Assembly: GCA_021736205.1 (NCBI GenBank)
Contig: JAIPGF010000003.1
Location: 7,772 to 71,771 of the forward strand
DNA length: 64,000 bases
DNA from: Candidatus Izemoplasma sp.
GTDB taxonomy: Bacteria; Bacillota_I; Bacilli_A; Izemoplasmatales; Izemoplasmataceae
Direction: 5' to 3'
In this document: positions 451-62,979 of the stretch, one piece after another
Layout: every line of letters begins with the position of its first letter
Numbering within the stretch: the first letter of the stretch is position 1
Notes under the pieces: model-generated
The model's input: the letters and a program-made list of their open reading frames with translations, nothing else
Databases searched by the model: none
Told to the model about the DNA's origin: nothing
Program-made: the position numbers and the translations under genes

Positions 451-1479
451 TTATTTGTCATTTGGCGTATATTTTTTATAATCAATCCAAATGTATTTAT
501 CATCCTCTAAATCACTCATAATATCGCTTAGTTTTTCTCCAGTCACTAAGGCATTTGTAAGCTCATTAATTGCTAATGCCATTGATTTTGAATCATTTAA
601 GACTGTCCCTGAGAGATACCCTTGATCAATTAACTCTAAGGCAATTGGTAGCCCATCAATCCCTACTACTGGCATCCAAGTTTCTGTGTCTCTATCTATC
701 ACACCATTATCATTCTCATCAACAAAATACCCTTCTTCTTTTAAGACTTCAATAGCGCCAATGGCCATCGCATCATTATTTGAAATGACTAATTCTATTG
801 TATTACCAAATTCAACTAATAAATCTGTCATCTTTTCTTTTGCTATCTCTTGTGAAAAATAGGCTTCTTCAATAATTAGTATGTCTATATGGAATCCGCG
901 GTCAGTTAATTCTTGAACAACTCTTTCCGTTCTTATTTCTGCATCTTGGTGACCAGGTTCTCCTTTTAAAATAACACATTGGATATTATTATCATTGTTT
1001 TTATCTAGTTCATTTAAATAATAAGAATTTCCTCCGAATAAATCAATAATAATATCTGCTTGAAAAATAGCTGATTGTTCTGGTTTAGCGCCAACATAAA
1101 ATAGTTGATCGTAAGAATACATATCTTCTTTCAGTGGTTCTCTATTAATAAAAATAATAGGCACATCTTTTTCTTTTGCTTTTTCAATTATTGGATAAAC
1201 ACCTAGACGATCTACAGGATTAACAATAATAACACGTGGGTTATCCAAAAAGACATCATTTATGATATCGTTTTGAATGATTTGTGAGTTTTTTGAATCA
1301 TATGATTCAAAACGATATGAATTATAATTTTTATTATCATAAATTAGCTCTTCAAATTGCTGCATATAAAGATCATCGTAGTCGTAAATAATAAGTGGAA
1401 CTTCGACTTCTTTTGTTCTGCAACCTGTTAGAAATAACCCAAGTGATATAAATAGAAACGCTATAATTAACTTTTTCAT
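451..1479 (-). CDS. periplasmic sugar-binding-protein-fold lipoprotein, probable ligand-sensing partner of the adjacent kinase
   Basis: 342 aa ORF with a lipobox (LTGC). It has a type-1 periplasmic binding protein pattern (VIIVNPVD, DVPIIFINRE, ISNNDAMAIGA). It lies 4 nt downstream of the kinase gene. Confidence 0.7.
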   Translation of the reverse strand: MKKLIIAFLFISLGLFLTGCRTKEVEVPLIIYDYDDLYMQQFEELIYDNKNYNSYRFESYDSKNSQIIQNDIINDVFLDNPRVIIVNPVDRLGVYPIIEKAKEKDVPIIFINREPLKEDMYSYDQLFYVGAKPEQSAIFQADIIIDLFGGNSYYLNELDKNNDNNIQCVILKGEPGHQDAEIRTERVVQELTDRGFHIDILIIEEAYFSQEIAKEKMTDLLVEFGNTIELVISNNDAMAIGAIEVLKEEGYFVDENDNGVIDRDTETWMPVVGIDGLPIALELIDQGYLSGTVLNDSKSMALAINELTNALVTGEKLSDIMSDLEDDKYIWIDYKKYTPNDK

Positions 1480-1483
1480 TGTA

Positions 1484-3199
1484 TCATCCTTTTTCTAGTG
1501 GGAAGTATATCTGAATCGTTGTACTTTCATCTAAAACACTCTTTATATGTATTCCTGAGCGTTCTCCATAATATAACTTTAGACGCTGTACAACATTTTT
1601 AAGACCAATACTTTCATGGTTATCATTCTGTATCTTTTCATAAATCTCTTCTATTTGTTCATCAGTTAATCCATACCCATTATTCATAACCTCGAAATAG
1701 ATAAACCCATCTTTTTTATATACAGAAATATCAATTTGACCTTTAAACTCTGTGCTAATTCCATGATGTATGGCATTTTCGATAATAGGCTGCAATATAA
1801 GTTTAACAACTTTTTTATCTTTGATTGATTCTTCAACGTTTACAGTATATTCAAATTTATTAGAATATCTAATTGTTTGAATTTTTAAGTAATATTTGGC
1901 ATGTTGAATTTCTTTATCAATCGTAATAATATCTTTTCCTCTTGAAATACTTATTCTGAAGAAGCGACTAAGTGCCATAACCATTTCTATAACATGTTCG
2001 TTATCATTTTGTTCTGAAAGCCAAATAATAGAATCAAGTGTGTTATATAAAAAGTGTGGATTAATTTGTGTTTGAAGCGCAATCAATTCTGTTTTACGTT
2101 TTTCATTTTGTTCATCAACAAGTTGATTCATTAATCCTCTAATTTCTTTAATCATCTCATTATAAGCCGCAGCTAAGATTACAACTTCTTTTTGTCCACG
2201 TACTTCAACTTCTTTATATAGATGATCACTATGTTGTATATCAGTCATGTGCTCTTTTAATTTATTTAAGGGTCTTGTTATTTGCTTTGTTAATATAGAA
2301 GCTATTAATGTTGAAATGAAAATTGTTACAACCAAGACGGTTGATAAAAGAAAAAATATCGATATTTTTGAACTTCCAATCAAATCAACATTAATAAACG
2401 TCGCGATACGCCACCTTGTTCCATGTATCGTATTAATACTCACATACATATCTGTACCATCAATTGATACAAAATCGCCACCGATAATGATTTTTCTAGC
2501 TATAACGTTACTATCACAGGTAGAATTTTGACATTTGTCTGTCGAAGAATAAATCAATTGATTTTTATCGCTAATAATAATTAGATGTCCATTTTCACCT
2601 AAATTGGTTTGTTTAGCAAGGGTGTCTATTTGTTCAGTACTTAATTCAATTAATAAAACACCTGAGTATTTTTGTGAATATTCATAATAATCAATTTGTT
2701 TAGATACACTAATTACTTGTTCATTACTATCAACAAAGACATCTTGTGGATGGGGTGTTGAAAAGAAATACACTTCTTCGTTATCAATTGCCCGATCAAA
2801 CCAATAACGTTCTGTTAAATCCTCATAAGCTGAATAGTTTAGTTTACTTGTTGCAGCAATTGTACCATCCATCTTTACTAAACTAATCGTAATTGTGTCA
2901 CTATTTAATGTTGCAACATTACTATATATTTCATGTAAACTTTCTTGATTCGCAATTTCAACTTCTTTGGTTTTTAATTCAATGTAATTCGCAAGATCTC
3001 TAACATCATTAAAATAGTTTTCATAATTTAAAATGATTTGTTTATTAATCTCTTTAGAGTTTGCTTCTACAATTTCATCAACTGTATTGTATGTATTTAT
3101 ATAGATAAACGCGCTCGCGAACAACAATGCGGTAGACAACAATAAAATTACAGCATAATTAAGCTTTCTGTCAATGCTTAATTGTTTAAACCATTTCAT
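1484..3199 (-). CDS. sensor histidine kinase, YesM/LytS-type (two TM segments, extracytoplasmic domain, HAMP, His_kinase, HATPase_c)
   Basis: 571 aa. The INPHFLYNTLDSI motif marks the PF06580-type phosphoacceptor region. The C-terminal ATPase part contains ENAIHHG and GYGL. It overlaps the regulator gene by 14 nt. Confidence 0.85.
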   Translation of the reverse strand: MKWFKQLSIDRKLNYAVILLLSTALLFASAFIYINTYNTVDEIVEANSKEINKQIILNYENYFNDVRDLANYIELKTKEVEIANQESLHEIYSNVATLNSDTITISLVKMDGTIAATSKLNYSAYEDLTERYWFDRAIDNEEVYFFSTPHPQDVFVDSNEQVISVSKQIDYYEYSQKYSGVLLIELSTEQIDTLAKQTNLGENGHLIIISDKNQLIYSSTDKCQNSTCDSNVIARKIIIGGDFVSIDGTDMYVSINTIHGTRWRIATFINVDLIGSSKISIFFLLSTVLVVTIFISTLIASILTKQITRPLNKLKEHMTDIQHSDHLYKEVEVRGQKEVVILAAAYNEMIKEIRGLMNQLVDEQNEKRKTELIALQTQINPHFLYNTLDSIIWLSEQNDNEHVIEMVMALSRFFRISISRGKDIITIDKEIQHAKYYLKIQTIRYSNKFEYTVNVEESIKDKKVVKLILQPIIENAIHHGISTEFKGQIDISVYKKDGFIYFEVMNNGYGLTDEQIEEIYEKIQNDNHESIGLKNVVQRLKLYYGERSGIHIKSVLDESTTIQIYFPLEKG

Positions 3200-4775
3200 G
3201 ATTACGATACTCCCTTGGAGATGAACCAGTTACTTTTTTAAAACTATGACTAAAATAATAAACATCTTTATACCCTACCTTAACTGAGATATCGACAATC
3301 TTTAAGTCGGATGTTTTAAGAAGTTCTTTCGCCTTATCCATTCGCATTTTTATTAAGTACTTACTAAACGTGTATCCACTATGCTTTTTAAACAACATGC
3401 TTAAATATGATATTGAAACATTTAATTCCTGGCTTAATTGTTCAAGCGACATAGATGGATCTGGGTAATTTTGCTTAATGTAATCTATCGCTCTTTGTGT
3501 TAATTCCTCACTATGTGATAGTTGCTTACGTGTATCCTGTTCACGAATCTTTAAAATGATATCAAGGAAATAATCAATCATTTCTTCATAACGCGTATAA
3601 ATGTTTAACTCGCTTACTAAATCAATATTTGTTATTTCATCCAACGGAATTTTTGCTTGTTCAGCTAAATTAATTAATAAACTTGATAATTCAATTATGA
3701 CATATTCTCTAATATATTTACTTTTATCTTGTATAATACGTTCTTTTAACTCATTTGTTTTCTCTTTAATCATTTCTTCTTTACCATACTGAATCAAACG
3801 ATCAAATGAATTAAAATCACTTATAGAAATAAATGATTGTTTAATCTCAGCGTTATACAGTTCTTCAGCGAAAACAATGTTGTTATAATTAAATAAATTC
3901 GCATAACTTAACGCTCTTTTAGCTTGATTGTAGGATTTGGGAAATGCTTCAAAATTGGAATACTTATTTGACACACCTATAAGTAGTCCTGATTCTAAAA
4001 ATTCTTTAGAGGATTGTGATAATTCAAATAATAATTCATCAGCTTTGTTTTTTTCATATGTTTCAAGAGAAAAAATAAACACAATCCCGTCTGCTACTAG
4101 TAACGTATGTTTAAAGGGGATTGATTTGAACACCTTTTTAAACATTTCATTTGTATTAATTTTAATTCTCTCTATAGATTTTAAAGAAGTCTTTTTTGAA
4201 TTAACACTGACTAAAGCAGTAGTAAAATTTGATTGATTTGATACATCAATCCCATATAAACTTAACTTTTTAATCCCTTCTTCACTAATTTTATCTAAAT
4301 TAATCAAAGAACTTAAATAACTATCCCCAATAATTGGTAGTAGTTCTTCATATTTCTCTTTCATAACCATAATGTCTTTCATTTGTTTATAATCACTATC
4401 AAGATTCTTTTTTAAATCTTTTAAAAACATATTAATTTCTTTTGAGCTGATGGGTTTCATGATATAATTATCAACTTGTAGAGAAACAGCTTCTTTTGCA
4501 TAATTAAATTCATCATACCCCGTAATAAATGCCACCTTGATCATCGGATAATCACGACGAATAATCCTTGTTAACTCAATCCCATCAACAAAAGGCATTT
4601 TAATGTCTGTTAAAACAACATCGACATCTTTCTCTTCAATAAGTTCTAATGCATCATGACCATTCCCTGCAGATCCAACTATATTAAATCCTATATCCGA
4701 TGATATTTTTGAAGCAATTCTACCTCTAATTTCATCTTCATCATCAACTAATATAATGTTATATGTTTTTGCCAT
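3186..4775 (-). CDS. response regulator, CheY receiver + AraC-type HTH (YesN-like)
   Basis: 529 aa. The N-terminus ILVDDEDEIR...DVVLTDIKMP is a receiver domain. The C-terminal part (SISYLSMLFKK...GYKDVYYFSHSFKK) is an AraC HTH. Confidence 0.9.
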   Translation of the reverse strand: MAKTYNIILVDDEDEIRGRIASKISSDIGFNIVGSAGNGHDALELIEEKDVDVVLTDIKMPFVDGIELTRIIRRDYPMIKVAFITGYDEFNYAKEAVSLQVDNYIMKPISSKEINMFLKDLKKNLDSDYKQMKDIMVMKEKYEELLPIIGDSYLSSLINLDKISEEGIKKLSLYGIDVSNQSNFTTALVSVNSKKTSLKSIERIKINTNEMFKKVFKSIPFKHTLLVADGIVFIFSLETYEKNKADELLFELSQSSKEFLESGLLIGVSNKYSNFEAFPKSYNQAKRALSYANLFNYNNIVFAEELYNAEIKQSFISISDFNSFDRLIQYGKEEMIKEKTNELKERIIQDKSKYIREYVIIELSSLLINLAEQAKIPLDEITNIDLVSELNIYTRYEEMIDYFLDIILKIREQDTRKQLSHSEELTQRAIDYIKQNYPDPSMSLEQLSQELNVSISYLSMLFKKHSGYTFSKYLIKMRMDKAKELLKTSDLKIVDISVKVGYKDVYYFSHSFKKVTGSSPREYRNHEMV

Positions 4776-4835: not shown

Positions 4836-4872
4836 AGAAAAAGACAACATTTCAAAATTGAAATGTTGTCTT
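4836..4872 (-). terminator. rho-independent terminator after the heliorhodopsin gene
   Basis: Near-perfect inverted repeat AAGACAACATTTCAA / TTGAAATGTTGTCTT (4841-4872), followed on the minus strand by a T-run (plus-strand A-run 4837-4842). Confidence 0.7.
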
Positions 4873-4896: not shown

Positions 4897-5700
4897 TTAT
4901 GGCTGTAATGCACCAACTAAAACCAACCATGCTAAGACTGATTTAGCTACCAAACTTAAAATAATGTATCCGCGTTCTCCGTATAAATAATTTTTCCATT
5001 TTCCTTTTTTTAAATATTGGAAAATCATATTTACAGGAAATGAGTTAAATGCAATGAAGTACGTAATAACAATCGCCCAGACAAACCAAGGTGTCTCAGC
5101 GGTTGCTTCTGGTGAAGCGCCTGTCATATACAAAATAATAGCTATCCATGGTGCCAAGCCTGCAATGCTTCCCCAAATAAATGGTCCCCAATTAACATCT
5201 TCTTTTTCTTTACCTGAGTTTAATTGTTCCATCACAAGACCAAATAAATTCATTGATGCATTAACAAGAAAAATCAAAATAAGTGATGCGATATCCCATA
5301 CACCAAATAAATATGCTATAAGGACTATCATAATTGATGAACTAAGTGCATACTCAAACCATCTAAATCTATTAATACCTTTTTCTAGATCTTTATTATA
5401 GATAGTATTAAATTTCTCTGGCAGTGAGATTAAAGCATGTGCTATTGCAGAAATTAATAGAAACATAGCAACTAAAACAAAAAATGGTAACGTAAATGCC
5501 TCGGTTCGTGCAAAAGCTAAGTATCCTTGTCCAGGTCCTGTTTCAACAAATGTTAAATAATGCTGATAAAGTTGCATTTTAAAATCTCCAAGATCACTAA
5601 GAACTAATCCAAGAATAATCATAAGAATACCTTGAACTAAATGAAATGCACCCATAATGATATTGAATTTTCTTAAACTTTTTAAAGATGTTTTTTCCAT
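4897..5700 (-). CDS. heliorhodopsin (7-TM retinal protein with inverted topology)
   Basis: 267 aa. It aligns by eye with heliorhodopsin 48C12 along its whole length: FNIIMGAFHLVQ, FRWFEYALSSSIMIVLIA (counterion Glu), VNASMNLFG, and GERGYIILSLVAKSVLAW (Schiff-base Lys in SLVAKS). Confidence 0.85.
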   Translation of the reverse strand: MEKTSLKSLRKFNIIMGAFHLVQGILMIILGLVLSDLGDFKMQLYQHYLTFVETGPGQGYLAFARTEAFTLPFFVLVAMFLLISAIAHALISLPEKFNTIYNKDLEKGINRFRWFEYALSSSIMIVLIAYLFGVWDIASLILIFLVNASMNLFGLVMEQLNSGKEKEDVNWGPFIWGSIAGLAPWIAIILYMTGASPEATAETPWFVWAIVITYFIAFNSFPVNMIFQYLKKGKWKNYLYGERGYIILSLVAKSVLAWLVLVGALQP

Positions 5701-5731
5701 ACATATCGCTTCCTTTCATTTTTATAATTAT

Positions 5732-5740: not shown

Positions 5741-5891
5741 TTTTTTTTAATAAAAATAACATCTTACACAAAAATATAATTAATAAAAATCTTTCGAAAC
5801 TTTTATTATTACCATTAAACAAACCAATTAGAGTACTTTAAGAGTTAAAGGAATATCCCTTATATCAGCAATATCCCAGCAAGTAAAAAAA

Positions 5892-6031: not shown

Positions 6032-6060
6032 TTGACATTTATATTATTCTACCCTATAAA
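6032..6060 (+). promoter_or_regulatory. sigma-A promoter (TTGACA-17-TATAAA) for the riboswitch-led fibre-subunit operon
   Basis: TTGACA at 6032-6037, a 17-nt spacer, and TATAAA at 6055-6060. It sits about 20 nt upstream of the aptamer-like element. Confidence 0.55.
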
Positions 6061-6079: not shown

Positions 6080-6158
6080 AAGAAGGAAAAGGCATTCTTG
6101 AAGAAATTCAAGCGATCGCAAAACTATAGGGCCTGTAAAATGGTAGCCAGTTACCACG
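6080..6158 (+). promoter_or_regulatory. c-di-GMP-I (GEMM-I) riboswitch-like aptamer, copy 1
   Basis: A GNRA-capped hairpin TTGAA-GAAA-TTCAA (6098-6111) is followed by GATCGCAAAACTATAGGGCC, a short hairpin, and TAGCCAGTTACC (6144-6155). This matches the remembered GEMM-I core (GACGCAAAGC..GGG ... AGC.G.UUACC of Vc2). It shares CTATAGGG and TAGCCAGTTACC exactly with copy 2 on the other strand. Confidence 0.65.
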
Positions 6159-6183
6159 TATTTTTATGGTAGCTGGTTTTTTT
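6147..6183 (+). terminator. intrinsic terminator forming the expression platform of riboswitch copy 1
   Basis: A 10-bp stem CCAGTTACCA (6147-6156) / TGGTAGCTGG (6167-6176) contains one G-U pair. It has a 10-nt loop and then TTTTTTT (6177-6183). The 5-prime arm is the conserved 3-prime strand of the aptamer. Confidence 0.7.
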
Positions 6184-6224
6184 ATTGCTATATACAGACT
6201 TTAATTATGATTGGAAGTGATCAG

Positions 6225-6827
6225 ATGATTACACGGAGATTTGTTCAGATCAGTACAGTAGCTATATTATTAATAGGGTTTATCTTTACATCAGGTTCTG
6301 CGTTTGCTTATTGGAGAGAAGTTAATGTTTCCAGAGATGTAGAAATCGTAAAGATAGGAGAACCTATTGAAATAATAGTTGACGATATCTATTCTGAAAG
6401 TAATCTTCATTTAGTCCCAGAAGGATACATTATAAGTGTTCAAGATGTTGAAGAAGTCCAACTTGAATATGAAGTAAGTGTTTCTCGAGAACTAATAAAT
6501 ACTGTTAATTTAAATATACGAGCTGTTGATATTTTAATTGATGGTTCTGATACTTATAGCCATCTTGTAGATATATCAATTATGGGTTTAGGTAGCGAAG
6601 CTCAGTTAGATCTCTTTAATGAAGCTTTAACAATTTATGTTACAGTAAGACTAGAAGAACCATTTGATGAAGAAGAAGTTGTAGGGAAAAACTTAGATGA
6701 ATCCCTTGTGAATGTGGAAGACTCTGAGTTAGCTTATCAAACAATAACAGGTAAGACCATAACATTCACACTAAATTTTGAATTAGAAGTAAAAGAAATT
6801 TCTAGCAACGACAATTCACAGAATTGA
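6225..6827 (+). CDS. secreted protein with a SipW-cognate-type signal peptide (paralogue A of the fibre-subunit family)
   Basis: The ORF track starts at 6207. The ATG at 6225 (MITRRF...) follows GGAAGTGA and is the likelier start. The hydrophobic N-terminus ends in GSAFAYWRE. The C-terminus ITGKTITFTLNFELEV matches the ends of the 6873 and 9627 proteins. Confidence 0.7.
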   Translation: MITRRFVQISTVAILLIGFIFTSGSAFAYWREVNVSRDVEIVKIGEPIEIIVDDIYSESNLHLVPEGYIISVQDVEEVQLEYEVSVSRELINTVNLNIRAVDILIDGSDTYSHLVDISIMGLGSEAQLDLFNEALTIYVTVRLEEPFDEEEVVGKNLDESLVNVEDSELAYQTITGKTITFTLNFELEVKEISSNDNSQN

Positions 6828-6872
6828 TAAAATATAAAAAATAAATTAAAAAAATTAAAAGGAGAATAAAAA

Positions 6873-7403
6873 ATGAAAACAAAAAAATTAGGAATAGCGT
6901 TATTAGTAATGTTAGCGCTAGTAGTTACAACCGGAACATTTGCTTATTGGGCAAGTAGTGTAACAGACGGAACTAATACTGTTGGTGGGACTGTTACTGT
7001 TGGTACTGGTGAACAAGTTACAACTACTGTAACGGTAACTGCTCAATCTGATTTAAACGGCAATTTGGTACCTGTTGGATTTGAAGATGCAACAAAAGTT
7101 AATAATCTTGACTTAACGTTCCCAGTTACTTGGACTGCCGATCAAGCAGGTGCAGATGGAATCGTCGGAAATTTAAATGTAACAATTTCCAATTATGCTA
7201 TTGGTACACTTACTGGGACTGCTGTAACAGATATGTTTACAGTAACAATAACATCAGGTTCCGGAGCAATCACTGAAGGTGTATCACAAAATGTTATTAT
7301 CAATGTTGAATTTACAAATGAACCAACTGATTCAACTACATACAGCCAAGTTGCTGGAAACGACTTAACATTTGATGTTACATTTACAGCATCAGCCAAC
7401 TAA
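6873..7403 (+). CDS. secreted Thr/Val/Gly-rich protein with a SipW-cognate-type signal peptide, candidate major TasA-like fibre subunit (paralogue B)
   Basis: Strong RBS AAAGGAGA. The signal peptide ends in TGTFAYWASSV. The body is T/V/G-rich (TVGGTVTVGTGEQVTTTVTVTAQ) and has no Cys. The C-terminal motif is EPTDSTTYSQVAGNDLTFDVTFTASAN. Confidence 0.75.
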   Translation: MKTKKLGIALLVMLALVVTTGTFAYWASSVTDGTNTVGGTVTVGTGEQVTTTVTVTAQSDLNGNLVPVGFEDATKVNNLDLTFPVTWTADQAGADGIVGNLNVTISNYAIGTLTGTAVTDMFTVTITSGSGAITEGVSQNVIINVEFTNEPTDSTTYSQVAGNDLTFDVTFTASAN

Positions 7404-7442
7404 TAATTAGAAAATAAACTTAATATTTAAGGTGGTGATAAA

Positions 7443-7754
7443 ATGAGTATTAAAAAGAAATTACTGTTAGTATCTACTTTGCTACTGACACTTTTTGGTG
7501 CTACGTTTGTCACTGATAATTCTTATGCGTATTGGGCTTCAAGTATTTCATCTACTCAACAAACTACTACTGGTACTGTAACAGTTAGCTCATGGAATTT
7601 TATTCCAATTTGGGACAGTACAACAACCTATTATTCAGGTGATGTTGTTGAGTATAACGGATCTTATTATGAAGCTAAAAAGACAAATACAAATGAAGAA
7701 CCAGAAATTGCTAAAGGTTGGAGAAGTAACTGGACTCAAACTACAGTTAACTAA
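7443..7754 (+). CDS. small secreted protein: SipW-cognate-type signal peptide fused to a CBM5/12 (chitin-binding type) module
   Basis: RBS AAGGTGGTG. The signal peptide ends in NSYAYWASSIS. The tail WDSTTTYYSGDVVEYNGSYYEAKKTNTNEEPEIAKGWRSNW fits the W..Y..GD.V.Y.G..Y.A...P...W pattern of CBM5/12. Confidence 0.7.
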   Translation: MSIKKKLLLVSTLLLTLFGATFVTDNSYAYWASSISSTQQTTTGTVTVSSWNFIPIWDSTTTYYSGDVVEYNGSYYEAKKTNTNEEPEIAKGWRSNWTQTTVN

Positions 7755-7764
7755 ATACACAAAT

Positions 7765-7803
7765 AAATAGGCACATATAAATCCGTGCCTATTTATTTTT
7801 TTT
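7765..7803 (+). terminator. rho-independent terminator ending the fibre-subunit transcript
   Basis: Perfect 10-bp stem AAATAGGCAC (7765-7774) / GTGCCTATTT (7785-7794), then a T-run to 7803. Confidence 0.85.
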
Positions 7804-7804
7804 A

Positions 7805-7813
7805 TGCTATAAT
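7805..7813 (+). promoter_or_regulatory. extended -10 element (TGcTATAAT) for the signal-peptidase genes
   Basis: TGCTATAAT lies immediately after the terminator and 16 nt before the AGGAGG at 7830-7835. Confidence 0.4.
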
Positions 7814-7841
7814 ATCCTTAAAGAAACTTAGGAGGTCCTTA

Positions 7842-8393
7842 ATGATGAAAAATTCACAAATAAAAGAAAATATAACTATATTTGGATCAGCTATTTTAAT
7901 CGCAATATTGATCATATATATTCTTTTTCAATTGTTTATGCCTAAACTTACTATAAAAGTCTTTGGTGCTAAGCCCTATAACGTTATTACTGAAAGTATG
8001 GAACCTGTATTAGATGTAAATGATATCGTTGTTGTGAAACGCTTTAAAATAGATAACGCAGAAGAAGGCGATATTATAACTTTTAATGCAGATATTAATT
8101 ATGATGGCACAAAAGAAATTGTAACCCATTATATTTATTCTATAACTGGAACTGATGAAAATAGAGTTATTAGGACGAATAGACATTATGACAACATGAA
8201 CAATGCCGTTCCTGACACATGGTTCCTTAATGAGGACGATGTAATTGGTACTTACTGGTTTCATATTCCAAAATTAGGTTATGTTAGTGAGTTTTTAAAA
8301 AGTCCTTTTGGTATTGCTGCAATGATAGTCAATATAGGCGTTATTGTTGGTGTCGTATATCTAATTAAACAAGGGAATGAAGTTAAGGAATAG
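7842..8393 (+). CDS. sipW: signal peptidase I, SipW / ER-archaeal type (paralogue 1)
   Basis: The ORF-track start at 7785 lies inside the terminator. ATGATG at 7842 follows AGGAGG. Motifs match B. subtilis SipW: VITESMEP (nucleophile Ser), GDIITF, VTHYIY (His), GTYWFHIPKLGYV, and a C-terminal TM. Confidence 0.8.
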   Translation: MMKNSQIKENITIFGSAILIAILIIYILFQLFMPKLTIKVFGAKPYNVITESMEPVLDVNDIVVVKRFKIDNAEEGDIITFNADINYDGTKEIVTHYIYSITGTDENRVIRTNRHYDNMNNAVPDTWFLNEDDVIGTYWFHIPKLGYVSEFLKSPFGIAAMIVNIGVIVGVVYLIKQGNEVKE

Positions 8394-8402
8394 GTTTTTA
8401 AA

Positions 8403-8981
8403 ATGTCTAAAAATAAAAATAATATCAAGCAAAAACTTAAATTATTATACTTAAAAATAAAAAAGACCAAAACTACCCATTTTATATTTTTAGGTATTTT
8501 AGTACTCTCAGTCGTAAATATTTCTATTATGAGCTTATTTTTTTATGATAACGATTATAATTATAAAATAATGAACATATCTTATATAAGCGCCATCACA
8601 CCTGAACAAGATGTGAATGAAACATTGTATACCAACGTTATTAAAATCAAGGAATTCAACTTAAATAACGCAACTATTGGTGATTTAGTCATAATCTATG
8701 ATGATTTTAGTACCAATGAATACTGGGTAGAGAAAATCATCGATATAAATGAAACAACCAAAGAAATAACAGTCACTTATGATGAAGTTTCAAACAACAA
8801 CATTTCTTATAACAATATATATGGAACATACATTAAGAAAGCAAATATCTTTGGAACAATTTATCACACAGCTATGTTTACTAGAGGATATATCTTACTT
8901 GTGTTTAGTCACATTTTTATTCTAGCGGCTTATTATACTTATTTTATCCTCCATGTAAAGGAACCAAAAAAGCGAATTTGA
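8403..8981 (+). CDS. SipW-fold paralogue lacking the catalytic residues (predicted pseudo-peptidase)
   Basis: It has the same architecture as its neighbours: N-terminal TM, GDLVIIYDD, IYGTYIKKANIFGTIY, C-terminal TM. SAITPE replaces S(D/E)SMEP, and EYWVEKII replaces VTHY. Confidence 0.6.
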   Translation: MSKNKNNIKQKLKLLYLKIKKTKTTHFIFLGILVLSVVNISIMSLFFYDNDYNYKIMNISYISAITPEQDVNETLYTNVIKIKEFNLNNATIGDLVIIYDDFSTNEYWVEKIIDINETTKEITVTYDEVSNNNISYNNIYGTYIKKANIFGTIYHTAMFTRGYILLVFSHIFILAAYYTYFILHVKEPKKRI

Positions 8982-8990
8982 GGTGTCTAG

Positions 8991-9557
8991 ATGAAAAAAC
9001 ACATTGGTAAGTTCTTCATATATTTAATTTACACACTATTAATTAGTTATATTGTCATTACAGTGTTTTTTCCAAATAAAAGTACAGATATATTAGGCTT
9101 TCGTACATTCGTTGTTATATCAGATAGCATGGAGCCTAAAATAAATGTGTATGATATGGTTGTTATTAAAAAGGTCGATAAAGAAGACATACAAGTATCT
9201 GATATCATTACGTTTAAAGTCTATATTCCAGAAGTTGATTCAAAAAGTTATGTAACGCACTATGTTGACGAAATAATTATTAATTCTGAGAATGAGACAA
9301 TCTACAAAACACAGGGTGAATCGACTGCCGAAAATCCTGATGTTTGGACTGATGCAGATGGCAATGTTATAGATATCAGCTACAATGATGTCGAAGGAGT
9401 TTATCTTTTTAAGATTCCTAAAATTGGTCGGTTAATATATCTGTTAAGGGATCCTATCTTTGTCGGATTACTAATAGTAAATGGTTTCGTCATTTACTTT
9501 GTGTACAAATATATTAAAAAGTTACTATTTGATGCTAAAAATGAGAAAAAGGACTAG
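8991..9557 (+). CDS. sipW: signal peptidase I, SipW / ER-archaeal type (paralogue 3)
   Basis: RBS GAGGTG. Motifs are VVISDSMEP, SDIITF, YVTHYVDE, KTQGEST, GVYLFKIPKIGRL and a C-terminal TM. Confidence 0.8.
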   Translation: MKKHIGKFFIYLIYTLLISYIVITVFFPNKSTDILGFRTFVVISDSMEPKINVYDMVVIKKVDKEDIQVSDIITFKVYIPEVDSKSYVTHYVDEIIINSENETIYKTQGESTAENPDVWTDADGNVIDISYNDVEGVYLFKIPKIGRLIYLLRDPIFVGLLIVNGFVIYFVYKYIKKLLFDAKNEKKD

Positions 9558-9579
9558 ATTTTAAAATCTAGTCCTTTTA
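9550..9579. terminator. bidirectional terminator between the convergent peptidase and paralogue-D genes
   Basis: Perfect palindrome AGGACTAGATTTT / AAAATCTAGTCCT (9550-9575). It is flanked by A-rich sequence on the left and TTTTAA on the right, and it overlaps the TAG stop at 9555-9557. Confidence 0.7.
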
Positions 9580-9626
9580 ATATAAAGAAATAATATATAT
9601 TTAGAGAATACTCTTAAAGAATTAGG

Positions 9627-10133
9627 TTAATTTGCATAAAATGATACATTAAACATCAGTTGTCCACCAGCCAGTTGTTGGTACAACTCGTGGGTGCTTG
9701 GCTCGTTCATGGAAATACTTAATGAAACAATCACACGGATTGCTGATTCTTTACCCTCAAAAAGATGCTCTGAATAATCTAATGATTCTACTGTTTCTAT
9801 GTCGATATGGAAATTGAAAATAGCTTCAAGATTAGCTTCTGTTACAGTTGAATTAGAAAATACTAAATCAATTATTTCAGCATCCAACACCAAACCATCT
9901 TTAACAATCAGTTCATATTCATACTGTATAGTATGTACATCATTCACTGTACGAACTTGATTAGAAGGGATCAACGTGCTCTTGCTATCACTAATTAATG
10001 TTTCATTGATAATGTAGCTATCAGATGTTTCATTGATATAAACATTATCATCTTTTACAACACTTGCATAAATAGATGTTGTTGTTGAAAAAATTAAAAA
10101 AATCAAAACTAGACTTTTTAAGATGTTTTTCAT
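9627..10133 (-). CDS. secreted protein, paralogue D of the fibre-subunit family
   Basis: The ORF-track start at 10160 is unlikely. The ATG at 10133 (MKNILKSLVLIF...) follows AGGAG (10142-10146). LIPSNQVRTVNDVHTIQYEYELIV and EPSTHELYQQLAGGQLMFNVSFYAN parallel LVPEGYIISVQDVEEVQLEYEVSV and ITGKTITFTLNFELEV of paralogue A. Confidence 0.7.
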   Translation of the reverse strand: MKNILKSLVLIFLIFSTTTSIYASVVKDDNVYINETSDSYIINETLISDSKSTLIPSNQVRTVNDVHTIQYEYELIVKDGLVLDAEIIDLVFSNSTVTEANLEAIFNFHIDIETVESLDYSEHLFEGKESAIRVIVSLSISMNEPSTHELYQQLAGGQLMFNVSFYAN

Positions 10134-10160
10134 CTTAACCACTCCTATGGGGGTTAACAT

Positions 10161-10245
10161 CAGGTAACTGGCTATCTCGGTGAGATCCTTCTCAGTGAGA
10201 CCCTATAGCTTTCCGTCACAAGATTGCTCCTGCTTTGGCTTTATC
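10161..10245 (-). promoter_or_regulatory. c-di-GMP-I (GEMM-I) riboswitch-like aptamer, copy 2
   Basis: The minus strand reads GCCAAA-GCAGGA-GCAA-TCTTGT-GACGGAAAGCTATAGGGTCTCAC..GAGATAGCCAGTTACC. That is a GNRA (GCAA) tetraloop hairpin, a GACG.AAAGC core, a long P3-like hairpin and a 3-prime AGCCAGTTACC. The element order matches the Vc2 c-di-GMP-I aptamer as I remember it. Confidence 0.7.
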
Positions 10246-10297
10246 AAATATCAACACCATAGAAATGAAATCTCTATAGTTTTGATTTGATACTTTA

Positions 10298-10325
10298 ATT
10301 ATACTACATCTATGGTATTTGTCAA
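10298..10325 (-). promoter_or_regulatory. consensus sigma-A promoter (TTGACA-16-TATAAT) for riboswitch copy 2
   Basis: On the minus strand, TTGACA is at 10325-10320, followed by a 16-nt spacer and TATAAT at 10303-10298. Confidence 0.6.
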
Positions 10326-10364
10326 ACAAACAACGGTAATGACTTTTAAATAATCTTTTGGTTT

Positions 10365-11603
10365 CTATCTAATTATATCCAAAAAGACATCTACAATAGC
10401 CGGATCAAATTGTTTTCCACGATTATCAATTAATTCTTGAATTGTTTTTTCTTCAGATAATGCTTTTCGATAAATACGATCATTAGACATTGCATCATAC
10501 GCATCTACAACAGCTAAAATTCTAGATAATAATGGAGTTTCTTCCCCTTTTAGTTCTTTTGGATACCCTGTCCCATCCCACCGTTCATGGTGTGTTAATA
10601 TATAATAAGAAATAGCTTCTAATTGGGGCACACCGCTTGCGATTTTATATCCAATAATAGGATGCTGTTTCATTTTATTATATTCTACTTTAGTCAGTTT
10701 TCCAGGCTTTTTTAAAATACTATCATCAATACCAATTTTACCTATATCATGTAAGATAGCAAATAATTTTAAATCATTGATGTCATTTGTTTTTAAATCT
10801 AATTTATACCCTAATTGTGCGCAAAGTTTTTCCATTCGTGATGCGTGTTGCTCAGTTTCATCACTACGCTCAAACAAGGATGTTTTTAAAGATTTAACAA
10901 GTGAACTACTCGCACTTTTAACTAATAACAATTTATTTTTAAGCATACTATCTTCAGCATATGACAGCGTAGAATAAATATTTTTAGAATCAGACGTCGT
11001 ACTAAATCCCATAGCTACAGTCAGTTCTATATCTTTGAATATATTATAATCTAAATTTTTTCTAATTTTTTCAATCATATTTTCGATATGTTTTTTCTTA
11101 GTATGATAAAAAATGACACAAAACTCATCGCCGCCAACGCGCGCAATGAAAGTCTCATCAGATAAGCTATCTTTTAAGATTTCTGCATAACTTGAAAGTA
11201 GTTTGTCCCCATATTCTGAGGAATAAAACTCATTTATTAATTTTAACCCATTAATATCAGTAATAAGAATAGATGCTTCAATCTCCTGTGAATAAATACG
11301 GTTTAATTCTTGATCAAAACTACTTCTATTATGTACCCCTGTAAGTAAATCAAAGTTTTCTAACTGCACTATATTATCTTCAGCTTTTTTTATAAGAGAA
11401 ACTTCTCTTTTTACCAAATAATAGATAATCAAAGCAGAAATCACGATAAAAAATAACCCTTTTATTGTTGATGTATATCTATATTGATAAACATCATCGA
11501 TCACAACCAATAAGATATAATCTGATAAAAAAATCCAAGATGCGCTAAATAATAGGTAAATGATTGAAACTCTAAAGGCAGATGTAATATTTTTATTTTC
11601 CAT
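10365..11603 (-). CDS. membrane-anchored GGDEF diguanylate cyclase fused to an HD-GYP phosphodiesterase domain
   Basis: It has N-terminal TM helices and a literal GGDEF (ARVGGDEFCVIF). HD-GYP signatures are HDIGKIGI and HHERWDGTGYP. The ORF track starts at a GTG at 11612; the first ATG is at 11603. Confidence 0.9.
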   Translation of the reverse strand: MENKNITSAFRVSIIYLLFSASWIFLSDYILLVVIDDVYQYRYTSTIKGLFFIVISALIIYYLVKREVSLIKKAEDNIVQLENFDLLTGVHNRSSFDQELNRIYSQEIEASILITDINGLKLINEFYSSEYGDKLLSSYAEILKDSLSDETFIARVGGDEFCVIFYHTKKKHIENMIEKIRKNLDYNIFKDIELTVAMGFSTTSDSKNIYSTLSYAEDSMLKNKLLLVKSASSSLVKSLKTSLFERSDETEQHASRMEKLCAQLGYKLDLKTNDINDLKLFAILHDIGKIGIDDSILKKPGKLTKVEYNKMKQHPIIGYKIASGVPQLEAISYYILTHHERWDGTGYPKELKGEETPLLSRILAVVDAYDAMSNDRIYRKALSEEKTIQELIDNRGKQFDPAIVDVFLDIIR

Positions 11604-11960
11604 ATAAATCACTTAAGGGGTTTTAGATAACTACTACTCCCTTAACCTCCTATATATAATTATATCATTTAAATCACATATAAAAAGCAATATAAGTTTA
11701 CAGAAAACTTTTTTTATTGTTTTCTTTGTTAAATAAAAACAATACAGGTTGTTTAAAATCTGTATACTCTCTTATCGATGTAATTTTTATACTCATCTAT
11801 GAAATTTATAACTTTTTTTGATATATCTCTTATTTCTTATTATTTTTCCGAAAATACCATCATTAAGACAATTATATAATTAACTACAAATCATATAGAA
11901 AAAAATCCCAGAAACACCTACAACTTTTAGTAGATATGTTTTCTAGGATATGAATTTTAC

Positions 11961-12036
11961 TGGTGGAGAATACTGGGCTCGAACCAGTGACCCCTTGCTT
12001 GTAAGGCAAGTGCTCTCCCAACTGAGCTAATCCTCC
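11961..12036 (-). tRNA. tRNA-Val (anticodon TAC)
   Basis: The minus strand reads GGAGGATTAGCTCAGTTGGGAGAGCACTTGCCTTACAAGCAAGGGGTCACTGGTTCGAGCCCAGTATTCTCCACCA. It folds as a cloverleaf, the anticodon loop is CTTACAA, and the CCA end is encoded. Confidence 0.95.
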
Positions 12037-12089
12037 AGACCATACATATCTTATCAAAAAAGATGTGAAAAGTCTATCAAATTCTTATT

Positions 12090-13073
12090 TTATCTTTTAA
12101 TAATTTGAATGTAATCTAAAACTGTTACACTTGGCGATTCTTCCATTGGGACATGCCCTAATGATGAATAGATATAAATATGACTACTAGGAATGTCACA
12201 GGTCTCCTTAAACAAAGAAACTGTATCTATTGGAATCCAACTATCTTGTTTTCCCCACATAAGAAAAATAGGCATCGATAATGATTCTAAACGTTCTACA
12301 TACGTAAAGGATGGTTCAGGTTCTCGTTGGATGGTCATAATTGCTTTTCTAGTCCCGCTTTTTCTTAATAAATTATAATAACGGTCTAATGTTTCATCCT
12401 TCAGACGATTAGGATTACCATATGCACTTTCTAAAGCTTTTCTTACTAAAAATTTAGGGGTTAATTTACTGAGAGGATTGGCTACAATATTATATTGTGT
12501 AATTTTAGACAATCCTTCTCTTCTTGTCTCTTCAACTTCGCGATTTGGATATACAGCATCAATCAAAGTAAGGGTATTGATACGACTAGGATGCTCACTC
12601 GCTAAAAACCAAGCAACAGCTCCCCCAAGCGAGTTACCAGCAAGATGAAATTCTGTAACTTCTAGATGATTTAACAATGCAATAATTGTTTCAGAACTTC
12701 GTCTATAACTTGTAATATTGTCATTGAATTTACTAGATAACCCATAATAAGGTAAATCAGGTATCACAACCCTATACCCCTCTTCAACAAGTTTCTCAGC
12801 CCATACAGAAAAGGTATGTGATGAGGAAAATGTCCCATGTATAAGAACGACAACTGGATCAGTTGTTTCTCCTAAATCTTGATAATGTAATTGTATTGAA
12901 AGAGGTTCATCATTTAAATCACTAATTGTCAAATCAATGTAGTTTGAATGTTTTGTAAAATATAATGCTTCTAGCTTACTTGTAGGAATATCAAACCTCA
13001 CAAAAACAACTAAGAAAACAGAAAACAAAATTATTAATACAACTAATAACTTTTTAATTATTGTTTTAAGCAT
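12090..13073 (-). CDS. alpha/beta-fold hydrolase with an N-terminal membrane anchor
   Basis: It has HGTFSS (oxyanion region), the nucleophile elbow GNSLGG and a C-terminal SLGHVP. The ORF track begins at a GTG at 13082, and an ATG at 13073 lies behind GAGGTG. Confidence 0.8.
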   Translation of the reverse strand: MLKTIIKKLLVVLIILFSVFLVVFVRFDIPTSKLEALYFTKHSNYIDLTISDLNDEPLSIQLHYQDLGETTDPVVVLIHGTFSSSHTFSVWAEKLVEEGYRVVIPDLPYYGLSSKFNDNITSYRRSSETIIALLNHLEVTEFHLAGNSLGGAVAWFLASEHPSRINTLTLIDAVYPNREVEETRREGLSKITQYNIVANPLSKLTPKFLVRKALESAYGNPNRLKDETLDRYYNLLRKSGTRKAIMTIQREPEPSFTYVERLESLSMPIFLMWGKQDSWIPIDTVSLFKETCDIPSSHIYIYSSLGHVPMEESPSVTVLDYIQIIKR

Positions 13074-13108
13074 AACCTCCACCTCTACCTTAATAATACA
13101 AAGAAAAA

Positions 13109-13137
13109 TTAAAAAAACAAGTCATAAAGACTTGTTT
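13109..13137 (-). terminator. terminator after tRNA-Glu
   Basis: Stem AAACAAGTC (13115-13123) / GACTTGTTT (13129-13137). On the minus strand it is followed by a T-run (plus-strand A-run 13111-13117). Confidence 0.65.
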
Positions 13138-13149
13138 TAGGTTATAATC

Positions 13150-13225
13150 TGGTGACCCGTACGGGGTTCGAACCCATAAGTGCATGCGTGAAAGGCATGT
13201 GAGTTAACCATTTCTCCAACGGGCC
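13150..13225 (-). tRNA. tRNA-Glu (anticodon TTC)
   Basis: The minus strand reads GGCCCGTTGGAGAAATGGTTAACTCACATGCCTTTCACGCATGCACTTATGGGTTCGAACCCCGTACGGGTCACCA, with anticodon loop CTTTCAC. Confidence 0.95.
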
Positions 13226-41474: not shown

Positions 41475-41963
41475 CTATAAAAATTTAACTCCTGCTTTTC
41501 TCAGCAAGACTGTTGAATGTGTCTCTATAGCCTGTTCAGTCCCAATCGGTCCGACACCTTCATATGTAGTTGCTTTGATACTTACTTGGGAAATATGAAC
41601 ATTTAACAACGCAGCAATATTTTTTCGCATTGAATCTATATAACGCCTAATTTTAGGGGTTTCCAGGCATATCATACAATCGATATTACTAACTTTATAC
41701 CCCTTTTCCTTGACTTTTTCAAATGCTTTCTCAACAAAATAAGACGAATTCTGATTTTTAAATGCATCATTAGTATCCGGAAATAAACTCCCTAAATCTC
41801 CTAGCGCCAAAGCACCTAGTAAAGATTCAGCTACACTGTGAAGTAAACAATCCGCATCACTGTGCCCAACAATTCCCTTATAATGTTCAATTTTAACGCC
41901 TCCCAGGATAAAGTCCTCTTTAGGCTCTAACTTGTGGACATCAACACTATGGCCAATTCTCAT
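41475..41963 (-). CDS. ispF: 2-C-methyl-D-erythritol 2,4-cyclodiphosphate synthase
   Basis: 162 aa with MRIGHSVDVHKL, GHSDADCLLH and SIKATT motifs. Confidence 0.95.
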   Translation of the reverse strand: MRIGHSVDVHKLEPKEDFILGGVKIEHYKGIVGHSDADCLLHSVAESLLGALALGDLGSLFPDTNDAFKNQNSSYFVEKAFEKVKEKGYKVSNIDCMICLETPKIRRYIDSMRKNIAALLNVHISQVSIKATTYEGVGPIGTEQAIETHSTVLLRKAGVKFL

Positions 41964-46461: not shown

Positions 46462-46481
46462 GAAAAAAAGCCTTTCGGCTT
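46462..46481 (-). terminator. terminator after cdaA
   Basis: Stem AAGCC (46468-46472) / GGCTT (46477-46481) with loop TTTC. On the minus strand it is followed by T7 (plus-strand A-run 46463-46469). Confidence 0.6.
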
Positions 46482-58247: not shown

Positions 58248-58276
58248 ATTATAAAGTCCTAATTACTTGATGTCAA
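58248..58276 (-). promoter_or_regulatory. consensus sigma-A promoter (TTGACA-17-TATAAT) for the glnA leader
   Basis: On the minus strand, TTGACA is at 58276-58271, followed by a 17-nt spacer and TATAAT at 58253-58248. It overlaps the last codons and the stop of the ANTAR gene. Confidence 0.6.
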
Positions 58277-62821: not shown

Positions 62822-62847
62822 AAAAAAATAGAGAATTACCTCTGTTA
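62822..62847 (-). terminator. weak putative terminator (expression platform of the guanine riboswitch)
   Basis: The minus strand reads AACAGAG-GTAATT-CTCTATTTTTTT, a short AT-rich stem plus T7, directly after the P1 3-prime strand. Confidence 0.4.
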
Positions 62848-62849
62848 TT

Positions 62850-62919: not shown

Positions 62920-62979
62920 CAACCAACTTCAATAGTATCAGAAATTATCCTAAAACACAATAAAATAAAAACACTTTCA

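Follow-up and report, generated by a model that had tools for sequence, protein, structure and literature searches.

A heliorhodopsin typical of its Firmicutes/Mollicutes clade lies, apparently by coincidence, beside a c-di-GMP riboswitch operon in Candidatus Izemoplasma

Background

Heliorhodopsins (HeRs) are retinal-binding light sensors. What they do in the cell is only partly clear as yet, and for that reason any genomic setting in which one is found may offer a clue. The closest characterised relative of the protein studied here, TfHeR of Trichococcus flocculiformis (NZ_FOQC01000073.1, our locus L045), is encoded in an operon with a photolyase, requires residues R162 and K227 for photolyase binding and has no ion-pumping activity (PMC9769723). 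In a second system OcHeR regulates OmrDE, an ABC exporter of the multidrug type, and ten groups of HeR operons have been defined (PMC11109279). Solved structures include those of HeR 48C12 and a Thermoplasmatales archaeon HeR (PDB 6su3, 6uh3, 6is6, 7u55). Published surveys agree that HeRs occur with genes of the light, UV and oxidative-stress responses (bioRxiv 10.1101/2021.02.16.431466; 10.1101/2021.02.01.429150; PMC11109279), and the hosts are, as a rule, monoderm (10.1101/2021.02.01.429150).

Here we compare these systems with a HeR gene in a 64-kb stretch of a Candidatus Izemoplasma contig (the window; Table 1). A preliminary description of the window had recognised the gene and its neighbour, a divergent operon controlled by a c-di-GMP riboswitch, and had offered as speculation a functional link between light sensing and c-di-GMP.

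Table 1. Features at and around the heliorhodopsin gene (positions in the window)
Feature	Position	Strand	Basis or remark
Heliorhodopsin (HeR) CDS, 267 aa	4897..5700	minus	ORF call, family profiles, alignment, AF2 model
Counterion Glu E116, in RWFEY	codon 5353-5355	minus	aligns with E107 of 48C12; TM3 helix 111-131
Schiff-base Lys K253, in SLVAKS	codon 4942-4944	minus	aligns with K241 of 48C12; TM7 helix 244-264
Ribosome-binding site AAAGGAAG	5709-5716	minus	8 nt upstream of HeR ATG; read from sequence
Candidate extended -10 TGaTATAAT	5740-5732	minus	read by eye; no recognisable -35; weak in 31% GC DNA
Predicted intrinsic terminator after HeR	4841-4872	minus	14-bp stem, 4-nt loop, T-run; MFE -18.8 kcal/mol, z=-5.05
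Downstream genes beyond HeR terminator	451..4775	minus	same strand as HeR; context only
Response regulator with AraC domain	3186-4775	minus	
dCache/His_kinase sensor kinase	1484-3199	minus	
Peripla_BP_4 binding protein	451-1479	minus	
c-di-GMP-I riboswitch aptamer, divergent operon	6081-6158	plus	Rfam RF01051, 42.8 bits (gathering score 35)
Riboswitch-controlled operon	6207..9557	plus	context of HeR only
GGDEF+HD-GYP enzyme	10365-11612		GGDEF, HD and GYP motifs intact

Results

The gene and its transcription unit

The open reading frame is real, intact and full-length. It runs from an ATG at 5700 down to 4897, and the position given in the preliminary description stands, with the strand corrected to minus. 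The GC content is 32.1%, against a gene mean of 31.4%, and with a dN/dS of 0.06-0.10 relative to six relatives the gene is under strong purifying selection. Of the promoter-like element and terminator with which it had been credited, the terminator is borne out by its folding energy and separates HeR from the downstream response-regulator gene, but the promoter claim is weak because an extended -10 is no better than chance in AT-rich DNA: the scan returned 12 promoter-like sites where 12.3 were expected by chance from shuffled sequence. HeR is thus monocistronic, a transcription unit of its own that ends at a strong predicted terminator.

Family identity, key residues and fold

Both family profiles are matched over their full length and far above cutoff: Pfam PF18761 (Heliorhodopsin) at E=2.4e-92 and 309.1 bits (cutoff 26.7; profile positions 1-242 of 242), and the NCBIfam HeR equivalog NF038020 at 293.5 bits (cutoff 100; positions 1-244 of 244). 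Six solved HeR sequences in the PDB match at E 1e-47 to 2e-53. The diagnostic blocks noted earlier, comprising the RWFEY Glu, the SLVAKS Lys and two His (H20 and H88), are all present, and alignment with the solved HeRs places the Glu in TM3 and the Lys in TM7. H20 aligns with H23 of 48C12, a correspondence that, like those of E116 and K253, was counted from the printed alignment, whereas H88 (H80 in 48C12) and S249 (S237) were paired by local motifs (SALFH / SAIAH; LSLVAKS) and not counted through the gapped alignment block. In the family the two His belong to TM1 and TM2, and the Ser precedes the Lys by one helical turn. H20, H88, E116, S249 and K253 are invariant among 12 clade members.

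The AF2 (AlphaFold) model (pLDDT 71.7, pTM 0.68) predicts a seven-TM HeR fold whose first extracellular loop, which joins TM1 to TM2, contains a long beta-hairpin (TM1 6-34, hairpin 41-72, TM2 73-92, TM3 111-131, TM7 244-264). In a PDB fold search HeRs fill the first ten places (TM score 0.77-0.89, E<=4.5e-12) and type-1 rhodopsins score far lower (TM score <=0.63, E>=1.8e-3; the best at E=1.8e-3 with TM score 0.57-0.62); a good match is obtained with HeR structures only. The N-terminus and loops 2-3, 4-5 and 6-7 carry 16 Lys or Arg residues against none in the opposite loops, and by the positive-inside rule this indicates a cytoplasmic N-terminus, that is, the predicted inverted topology.

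Compared with 48C12 and the Thermoplasmatales HeR, the protein is 40-43% identical (model TM score 0.77-0.89); it differs from 48C12 in a TM1-TM2 hairpin region about 9 residues longer, and from both in belonging to a wall-less Mycoplasmatota lineage. TfHeR is much closer: it is 65% identical over its full length, falls with it in one clade of Firmicutes HeRs and has the same Lys, Glu and His positions. Its two positive photolyase-binding residues, located in the cytoplasmic loops, keep their charge here (R162 to K164, K227 to K231) and a third contact residue is lost (E97 to T99). Unlike TfHeR, with its photolyase operon, the window HeR is monocistronic and no photolyase homologue occurs in the 64 kb. 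That the protein might instead be a light-driven or light-gated ion transporter draws on the mention of proton transport by a viral HeR (PMC11109279); the window protein groups with bacterial HeRs, and the absence of ion pumping in TfHeR (PMC9769723) also argues against transport, a role that we regard as barely credible.

The identical protein is entered in NCBI as "heliorhodopsin HeR [Candidatus Izimaplasma sp.]", so the identification is correct but not new, the family itself being known. Izemoplasmatales are wall-less and monoderm, and the assignment of the identical protein to Candidatus Izimaplasma sp. agrees with the host range of the family. The closest HeR loci are from Izemoplasmatales, Acholeplasmataceae and Bacillota, with close homologues in the cultured Xianfuyuplasma coldseepsis, Mycoplasmatota bacterium WC30 and Acholeplasma laidlawii. 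Well conserved, the window gene is typical of the Firmicutes/Mollicutes HeR clade.

The adjacent c-di-GMP riboswitch operon

The divergent layout was correctly described: the HeR start (5700) and the first operon ORF (6207) are 506 bp apart. The 3' arm of the aptamer overlaps a terminator hairpin at about 6141-6190, and the window contains two c-di-GMP-I (GEMM-I, RF01051) riboswitches, both above the gathering score of 35 (42.8 and 56.4). The operon products comprise three small secreted proteins that share an (F/Y)AYW motif (one also has a CBM_5_12 domain), two signal peptidases of the SipW/archaeal type and an unknown membrane protein.

If HeR were the light input of this system, it would alter c-di-GMP, for example via the GGDEF+HD-GYP enzyme, and so switch the secreted-protein/SipW operon, bringing adhesion or matrix under the control of light. 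HeR does adjoin the operon, and the region from 5.7 to 11.6 kb holds two c-di-GMP-I riboswitches and the enzyme. Of 80 related loci, 7 have a homologue of the enzyme within 10 kb of HeR (L008 is one of them, and in L004 the homologue immediately precedes MarR-HeR), a raw rate that from the loci alone is not separable from background, and GGDEF/EAL genes are occasionally found near HeRs (Bulzu et al., 10.1101/2021.02.01.429150). We do not take the 7/80 as an enrichment; two of the seven, L004 and L008, share a syntenic pair (c72-c73) and so may go back to a common ancestor instead of being independent cases.

By contrast, neither the operon proteins nor the riboswitch occur at any related HeR locus examined. 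The neighbourhood did not recur when checked, homologues of the operon proteins lying near HeR in none of 84 related loci (80 loci and 4 further contigs). An Rfam scan found no c-di-GMP riboswitch in 27 of the closest or Mollicutes-type loci (385 kb), nor did a pattern scan of 1.19 Mb of related loci, using a regular expression that was tuned on both window copies and finds both but has limited sensitivity for divergent aptamers. HeR moreover has its own terminator, points away from the operon, and has its candidate -10 some 300 bp from the operon promoter. Chance adjacency is likely because c-di-GMP elements are dense here, about four in 64 kb. Our literature search, combining HeR with Izemoplasma, c-di-GMP or diguanylate cyclase, returned nothing relevant and no report linking HeR with c-di-GMP signalling or diguanylate cyclases; RF01051 has no known or conserved HeR association in that literature or, by Rfam, in the 27 loci, and in a published paper on cultured Izemoplasma the terms rhodopsin, light, retinal and c-di-GMP are all absent. 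Because it is not seen in any related genome, the adjacency looks coincidental, without demonstrated functional meaning; the speculated link finds no comparative-genomic support, and we judge it extremely improbable that HeR is the light input of the c-di-GMP system.

The downstream sugar-sensing module

On the other side of HeR, beyond its terminator, lies a sugar-sensing module; the ABC transporter that goes with it extends beyond the window. Of the ten neighbour groups published for HeR, two are represented nearby on this contig, by an ABC-transporter cluster and by DUF2177, which recalls OcHeR and OmrDE. In this case, however, the transporter imports sugar and works with binding proteins; the two-component system and a terminator stand between it and HeR, and the two are not co-transcribed.

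A HeR that acted like OcHeR on OmrDE would contact the neighbouring sensor kinase or ABC transporter and modulate it in that way. The module directly follows HeR on the same strand; in L061 and L070, too, a two-component system of the YesM/YesN type and a sugar ABC transporter come after HeR; two-component systems are statistically enriched around HeRs (10.1101/2021.02.01.429150); and a HeR-ABC transporter interaction has been demonstrated experimentally (PMC11109279). Yet L061 and L070, whose HeRs are 96% identical, represent a single lineage. Their genes are ordered differently, their ABC transporter is of another class, and their kinase and regulator share only 27-31% identity with the window counterparts, leaving only two independent occurrences among 85 loci. 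We accordingly set aside the YesN/YesM-type system, seen only in that single lineage, as a conserved HeR association. A strong terminator also separates HeR from the module, and DUF2177, which is 1-4 kb from HeR in the closest relatives, here lies 9 kb away, beyond the module, suggesting that the module was inserted. We judge contact with the kinase or transporter very unlikely.

Heliorhodopsin neighbourhoods in relatives

Recurrent HeR neighbours in related genomes are photolyase, MutY, a B12-binding regulator, MarR, glutathione peroxidase, DUF2177, DegV and DUF1295. Photolyase lies near HeR in 13 of 81 loci, the window locus not among them, and homologues of photolyase, MarR, MutY, DegV and the B12 regulator are absent from the 64-kb window. 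Glutamine synthetase is a known HeR partner family; the copy in the window (56814-58145) is 51 kb from HeR and for that reason is not considered linked.

Of the signature HeR, DUF2177, DegV and DUF1295, the contig carries DUF2177 (L001 14050-14451, 9.4 kb downstream of HeR, where a CMD-family gene is also found, at 9 kb) and DUF1295 (53662-54429, 47% identical to HeR-linked copies); DegV was not found within the window. Chazan et al. have speculated that HeR takes part with these three families in light-dependent remodelling of membrane lipids and does not regulate a soluble enzyme. The presence here of DUF2177 and DUF1295, the HeR-DegV/Dak2-DUF1295-(photolyase)-DUF2177 clusters of L005, L007 and L029, and the report that the trio is the most HeR-specific association (10.1101/2021.02.16.431466) all favour such a role. 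Nevertheless, besides the missing DegV homologue, DUF2177 is 9 kb and DUF1295 48 kb from HeR, neither is co-transcribed with it, and our literature search found no enzymatic activity for any HeR. We consider lipid remodelling unlikely as the function of this HeR.

Retinal and carotenoid synthesis

As had been noted, no retinal-synthesis gene is visible: among the 41 window proteins profiled there is no member of the blh, cyclase or phytoene-synthase families, the other window proteins being read as housekeeping from their N-termini. IspF (41475-41963) and IspD (41960-42628) are present, also as described. The supposed phytoene-desaturase-like fusion protein at 44053-46389 (778 aa) does not hold up: it reaches 24.7 bits against a CrtI-family cutoff of 238 and 25 bits against a carotenoid-isomerase cutoff of 587, and has no PDB sequence match. 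It is a remote FAD oxidoreductase only and, at about 25 bits on CrtI-family models, was discarded as evidence for carotenoid or retinal synthesis.

Discussion

Taken together, these observations make it very probable that the window encodes a bona fide, functional, stand-alone Izemoplasmatales HeR with a likely role in light, UV or oxidative stress, and that its position beside the c-di-GMP operon is a lineage-specific rearrangement. Going by the characterised members of the family, the opsin would bind all-trans-retinal, most likely scavenged by the cell, because no blh or crt genes are close by, the usual situation in HeR-only genomes. It would absorb green light and form a long-lived photointermediate without pumping ions, as TfHeR (PMC9769723) and the family suggest. 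The protein may then modulate a partner through its positively charged cytoplasmic loops, most likely as part of the response to light, UV and oxidative stress that forms its gene context in close relatives. Many Izemoplasmatales come from light-poor sediments, which counts against this reading.

Recruitment of HeR to its present neighbours would have wider consequences. Placed beside the sugar-sensing kinase or the c-di-GMP island (by which we mean the two riboswitches, the GGDEF+HD-GYP enzyme and the secreted-protein/SipW operon), HeR might feed light into nutrient uptake or surface-matrix production, and this would be a new heliorhodopsin output, in a wall-less bacterium. We hold such recruitment to be highly improbable. 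As a clue to HeR function the riboswitch operon fails, since this neighbour is unique to the present contig among the loci examined, and the window adds no weighty new hypothesis on HeR. The comparison across Izemoplasmatales confirms the published picture, in which HeR is found with light, UV and oxidative-stress genes, DUF2177, DegV and DUF1295, while retinal-synthesis genes are usually not nearby. Because close homologues are present in cultured relatives, the function of HeR is approachable in a wall-less cell.

Results

Identity and fold of the heliorhodopsin

The open reading frame named in the preliminary description, which gave no strand for it, is real and lies on the minus strand, with a start codon and a ribosome-binding site (Table), and the motifs quoted for it are all present: RWFEY with E116, SLVAKS with K253, and histidines at positions 20 and 88. 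The encoded protein (HeR) matches the Pfam heliorhodopsin profile PF18761 end to end (E=2.4e-92, 309 bits, cutoff 26.7) and the NCBIfam equivalog NF038020, 'heliorhodopsin HeR' (293.5 bits, cutoff 100), and its only significant matches in a PDB sequence search are six heliorhodopsin sequences (E 1e-47 to 2e-53), including a Thermoplasmatales archaeon HeR and 48C12, the reference protein with a solved structure. The PDB sequence alignments place H20, E116 and K253 on H23, E107 and K241 of 48C12, and local motif matching pairs S249 with S237. An AlphaFold2 model of moderate confidence (pLDDT 71.7, pTM 0.68), computed from a 12-sequence clade alignment, has seven helices and the HeR-typical beta-hairpin between TM1 and TM2, with E116 inside helix 111-131 and K253 inside helix 244-264. 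As to membership of another 7-TM family, a PDB fold search with this model has heliorhodopsins in all of its top ten places (TM-score 0.77-0.89, E<=4.5e-12), with type-1 rhodopsins far behind (E>=1.8e-3, TM<=0.63), in line with the profile searches. Lys and Arg number 16 in the N-terminus and alternate loops versus 0 in the opposite loops, a split that predicts a cytoplasmic N-terminus and the inverted topology that defines the family. Taken together, profile, alignment, fold and topology results uphold the identification as a heliorhodopsin, the main interpretation of the preliminary description. Of the two outcomes named there as refuting it, neither occurred: the profile searches point to no other 7-TM family, and the Lys and Glu align with the heliorhodopsin positions in TM7 and TM3.

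Among 12 aligned clade members H20, H88, E116, S249 and K253 are invariant (mean column identity 81%), dN/dS against six relatives is 0.06-0.10 with dS near saturation, and the GC content of the gene (32.1%) equals the gene average of the window, whose overall GC is 31%. Judged by these measures, the gene is functional and native. It is also an ordinary member of a known family, annotated before: NCBI protein P0001, 'MAG: heliorhodopsin HeR [Candidatus Izimaplasma sp.]', is identical in sequence, and Logan contig L001 carries the same locus. Nearly 5,000 homologues are found at E<=1e-10, the best 120 being 66-100% identical, and cultured carriers of 65-77% identical proteins include Mycoplasmatota bacterium WC30, Candidatus Xianfuyuplasma coldseepsis, Acholeplasma laidlawii, Trichococcus species and Proteiniclasticum species.

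Features of the window discussed in the text
Feature	Coordinates	Strand	Remarks
Sugar-sensing block	451-4775	-	response regulator with AraC domain, dCache/His_kinase sensor, Peripla_BP_4 protein; beyond HeR terminator
Intrinsic terminator	4841-4872		after HeR stop codon; 14-bp stem and T-run, MFE -18.8 kcal/mol, z=-5.05
HeR	5700->4897	-	ORF reading; 267 aa, ATG start
Ribosome-binding site AAAGGAAG		-	before HeR ATG; read from sequence
Extended -10 element TGaTATAAT	5740-5732		upstream of HeR, without -35; read from sequence
Promoter of riboswitch 1	6032-6037, 6055-6060		TTGACA, 17 nt, TATAAA; read from sequence, rated good
c-di-GMP-I riboswitch 1	6081-6158	+	Rfam; divergent side of HeR
Riboswitch-1 operon	6207-9557	+	three secreted proteins, two signal peptidases, one unknown membrane protein
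Secreted ORF, 177 aa	9627-10160	-	no family match; adjoins riboswitch 2
c-di-GMP-I riboswitch 2	10160-10249	-	Rfam, 56.4 bits, the stronger one
GGDEF+HD-GYP enzyme	10365-11612	-	GGDEF, HD and GYP motifs intact; motif and profile reading
FAD protein, 778 aa	44053-46389	-	N-terminal FAD Rossmann domain; profile search

Transcription signals and adjoining modules

HeR had been credited with its own terminator and promoter. The terminator stands and is strong, which makes HeR most likely monocistronic; the promoter fared less well, being a lone extended -10 element. A consensus scan finds no excess of promoter-like sites (12 versus 12.3 in shuffled sequence), and an own promoter is no more than plausible. 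The intergenic region between HeR and the riboswitch also holds a direct repeat, AGGAATATCCC / AGCAATATCCC (5849-5877, plus strand, 18 bp spacing), which may bind a regulator or have arisen by chance.

On the divergent side, the 3' arm of riboswitch 1 (6141-6155) can alternatively pair with 6166-6178 to form a terminator hairpin followed by a U-run (region 6081-6190, plus strand), an overlap that suggests a ligand-ON switch. The three small secreted proteins of its operon have an (F/Y)AYW(A/R)(S/E) motif in common, placed behind the signal peptide. None has a whole-protein match in Pfam or NCBIfam, one containing only a CBM_5_12 domain, and the two signal peptidases are of the archaeal/SipW type. 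The secreted proteins look like TasA/camelysin-type SipW substrates, and the operon may serve to make fibres or matrix on induction by c-di-GMP, here in a wall-less bacterium. Riboswitch 2 sits between the GGDEF+HD-GYP gene and the 177-aa secreted ORF; c-di-GMP elements in the 64-kb window number four.

On the other side lies the sugar-sensing block, which we take to resemble the XylFII-LytS-YesN three-component sugar sensor. Beyond the window, contig L001 continues with a second binding protein, an ABC ATPase and a permease (9229-13203), a sugar ABC transporter, followed by a CMD-family gene and then DUF2177. These last two, 9 kb downstream of HeR, adjoin HeR in relatives, so the intervening sugar-sensing/ABC block looks like an insertion. 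DUF1295 (53662-54429) lies 48 kb from HeR.

Elsewhere, a purine riboswitch (62836-62936, minus strand, 66.9 bits) precedes a 455-aa ORF (61401-62768, minus strand), a putative nucleobase (NCS2-type) permease from its N-terminal sequence. A putative gene for glutamine synthetase, a family already described as an HeR partner, was assigned by N-terminal sequence only and lies 51 kb from HeR (56814-58145, minus strand), just downstream of a 184-aa ORF (58263-58817, minus strand) scoring 22 bits for ANTAR, below the 27.3 cutoff.

Neighbourhoods in related genomes

We compared 80 related HeR loci (one genome per species, HeR 63-83% identical, flanks of at most 10 kb on either side) and four further contigs with 81-83% identical HeR. 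Homologues of the riboswitch-operon proteins occur near HeR in 0 of the 80 loci, nor are the operon genes in the Pfam-annotated neighbour lists of the four contigs. Rfam scanning of 385 kb, from the 27 loci that were closest or of Mollicutes type, gave no c-di-GMP riboswitch, and a pattern recovering both window riboswitches had no match across 1.19 Mb of related loci. Of the 80 loci, 7 have GGDEF+HD-GYP homologues at most 10 kb away from HeR, a frequency that may be no higher than the background of genomes rich in such genes, the window alone having four c-di-GMP elements in 64 kb; in L004 one stands directly upstream of MarR-HeR. A YesM/YesN-type system follows HeR in L061 and L070 only, a single lineage (HeR 96% identical) whose gene order and transporter class are unlike those of the window. 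The c-di-GMP neighbourhood, the one special-looking feature of this HeR, is by these comparisons not conserved. Light input into c-di-GMP signalling or sugar sensing in this lineage, the former link floated as speculation in the preliminary description, is in our view very improbable.

Clustering of all neighbouring ORFs, followed by Pfam annotation, identified the recurrent partners in relatives: MarR (immediately upstream and co-oriented in six Izemoplasmatales loci), DNA photolyase (13 loci), DUF2177 and a small DUF2177-like protein, glutathione peroxidase, MutY, TspO, DUF1722/2-thiouracil-desulfurase-like proteins, Dak2-DegV fusions, DUF1295, SDR, CMD, Cdd1 and NadB/NadC. Nine loci, mostly of Acholeplasmataceae or other Mollicutes-type MAGs, have a tocopherol-cyclase-like gene (~320 aa, PF14249 E=1.8e-16) directly beside HeR and co-oriented with it, downstream in eight (L006, L010, L012, L013, L017, L065, L074, L078; median gap ~49 bp) and upstream in L051 (Acholeplasma laidlawii); Chazan et al. 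list this family among HeR neighbours. Gene by gene, the HeR operons of L083 and L084 (HeR 81-83% identical) each begin with a regulator that combines HTH_3 and B12-binding domains, on the strand of HeR. In L084 (5773-8804) this regulator is followed by MutY, an unannotated 112-aa protein of the DUF2177-like ORF cluster c23 and HeR; in L083 (6124-8810) by a 328-aa MutY(-like)/unannotated protein and HeR, divergent from photolyase-DUF1722-TspO. Homologues of regulator, MutY and photolyase lie inside the 21-kb L007 locus, HeR in these three loci being 79-83% identical. In appearance the regulator is a photoreceptor of the CarH/LitR type, except that its HTH domain is XRE-type. Separately, three Mollicutes/Izimaplasma MAGs from soda lakes have a fluoride riboswitch that follows the HeR stop codon within ~40 bp (L020 10310-10369, L025 10829-10887, L052 10824-10886).

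One published survey reports oxidative-stress and light-dependent families near HeR, of which DegV, DUF2177 and DUF1295 are the three most specific to it (bioRxiv 10.1101/2021.02.16.431466); a second reports two-component systems, redox proteins and, occasionally, GGDEF/EAL genes (bioRxiv 10.1101/2021.02.01.429150); a third defines ten operon groups, among them photolyase, ABC transporter, SDR, alpha/beta hydrolase and DUF2177 (PMC11109279). The associations in relatives are those published before, from HeR loci that number in the thousands and include those of Firmicutes and Tenericutes. In the present genome, remnants of this context (DUF2177, CMD, DUF1295) are all that is visible, and the most economical interpretation is that HeR came to lie between two unrelated modules by rearrangement or insertion.

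Discussion

As previously described, no retinal-synthesis gene is visible in the window: blh, lycopene cyclase and phytoene synthase have no match among 41 profiled proteins, other ORFs having been taken as housekeeping from N-terminal sequences alone. The general isoprenoid genes IspD and IspF are present by profile search, as reported, but the supposed phytoene-desaturase-like protein does not hold up, scoring ~25 bits for CrtI/carotenoid isomerase against cutoffs of 238-640, remote kinship only. This 778-aa protein has no PDB sequence match and no family match C-terminal of about residue 450, and lies between a PAS-GGDEF protein lacking the GGDEF motif (42857-44038) and the c-di-AMP synthase CdaA (46480-47211). 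Because HeR-only genomes normally lack nearby retinal genes (bioRxiv 10.1101/2021.02.16.431466; 10.1101/2021.02.01.429150), we infer that retinal is scavenged or made by an unknown route.

Alignment and model give HeR a retinal-binding architecture with conserved photoactive-site residues. K253 would bind retinal, E116 serving as its counterion; absorbed light would lead to a long-lived intermediate without ion transport, and the cytoplasmic loops would relay the signal to a partner. Among characterised proteins the closest is the Trichococcus flocculiformis heliorhodopsin TfHeR (65% identical), which pumps no ions; it binds a class 2 CPD photolyase and stimulates it via R162 and K227, with E97 contributing (PMC9769723); the corresponding residues here are K164, K231 and T99. 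Given that binding and these equivalent residues, a photolyase would be a reasonable candidate partner of this HeR if the genome encodes one, with DUF2177 and DegV as alternatives.
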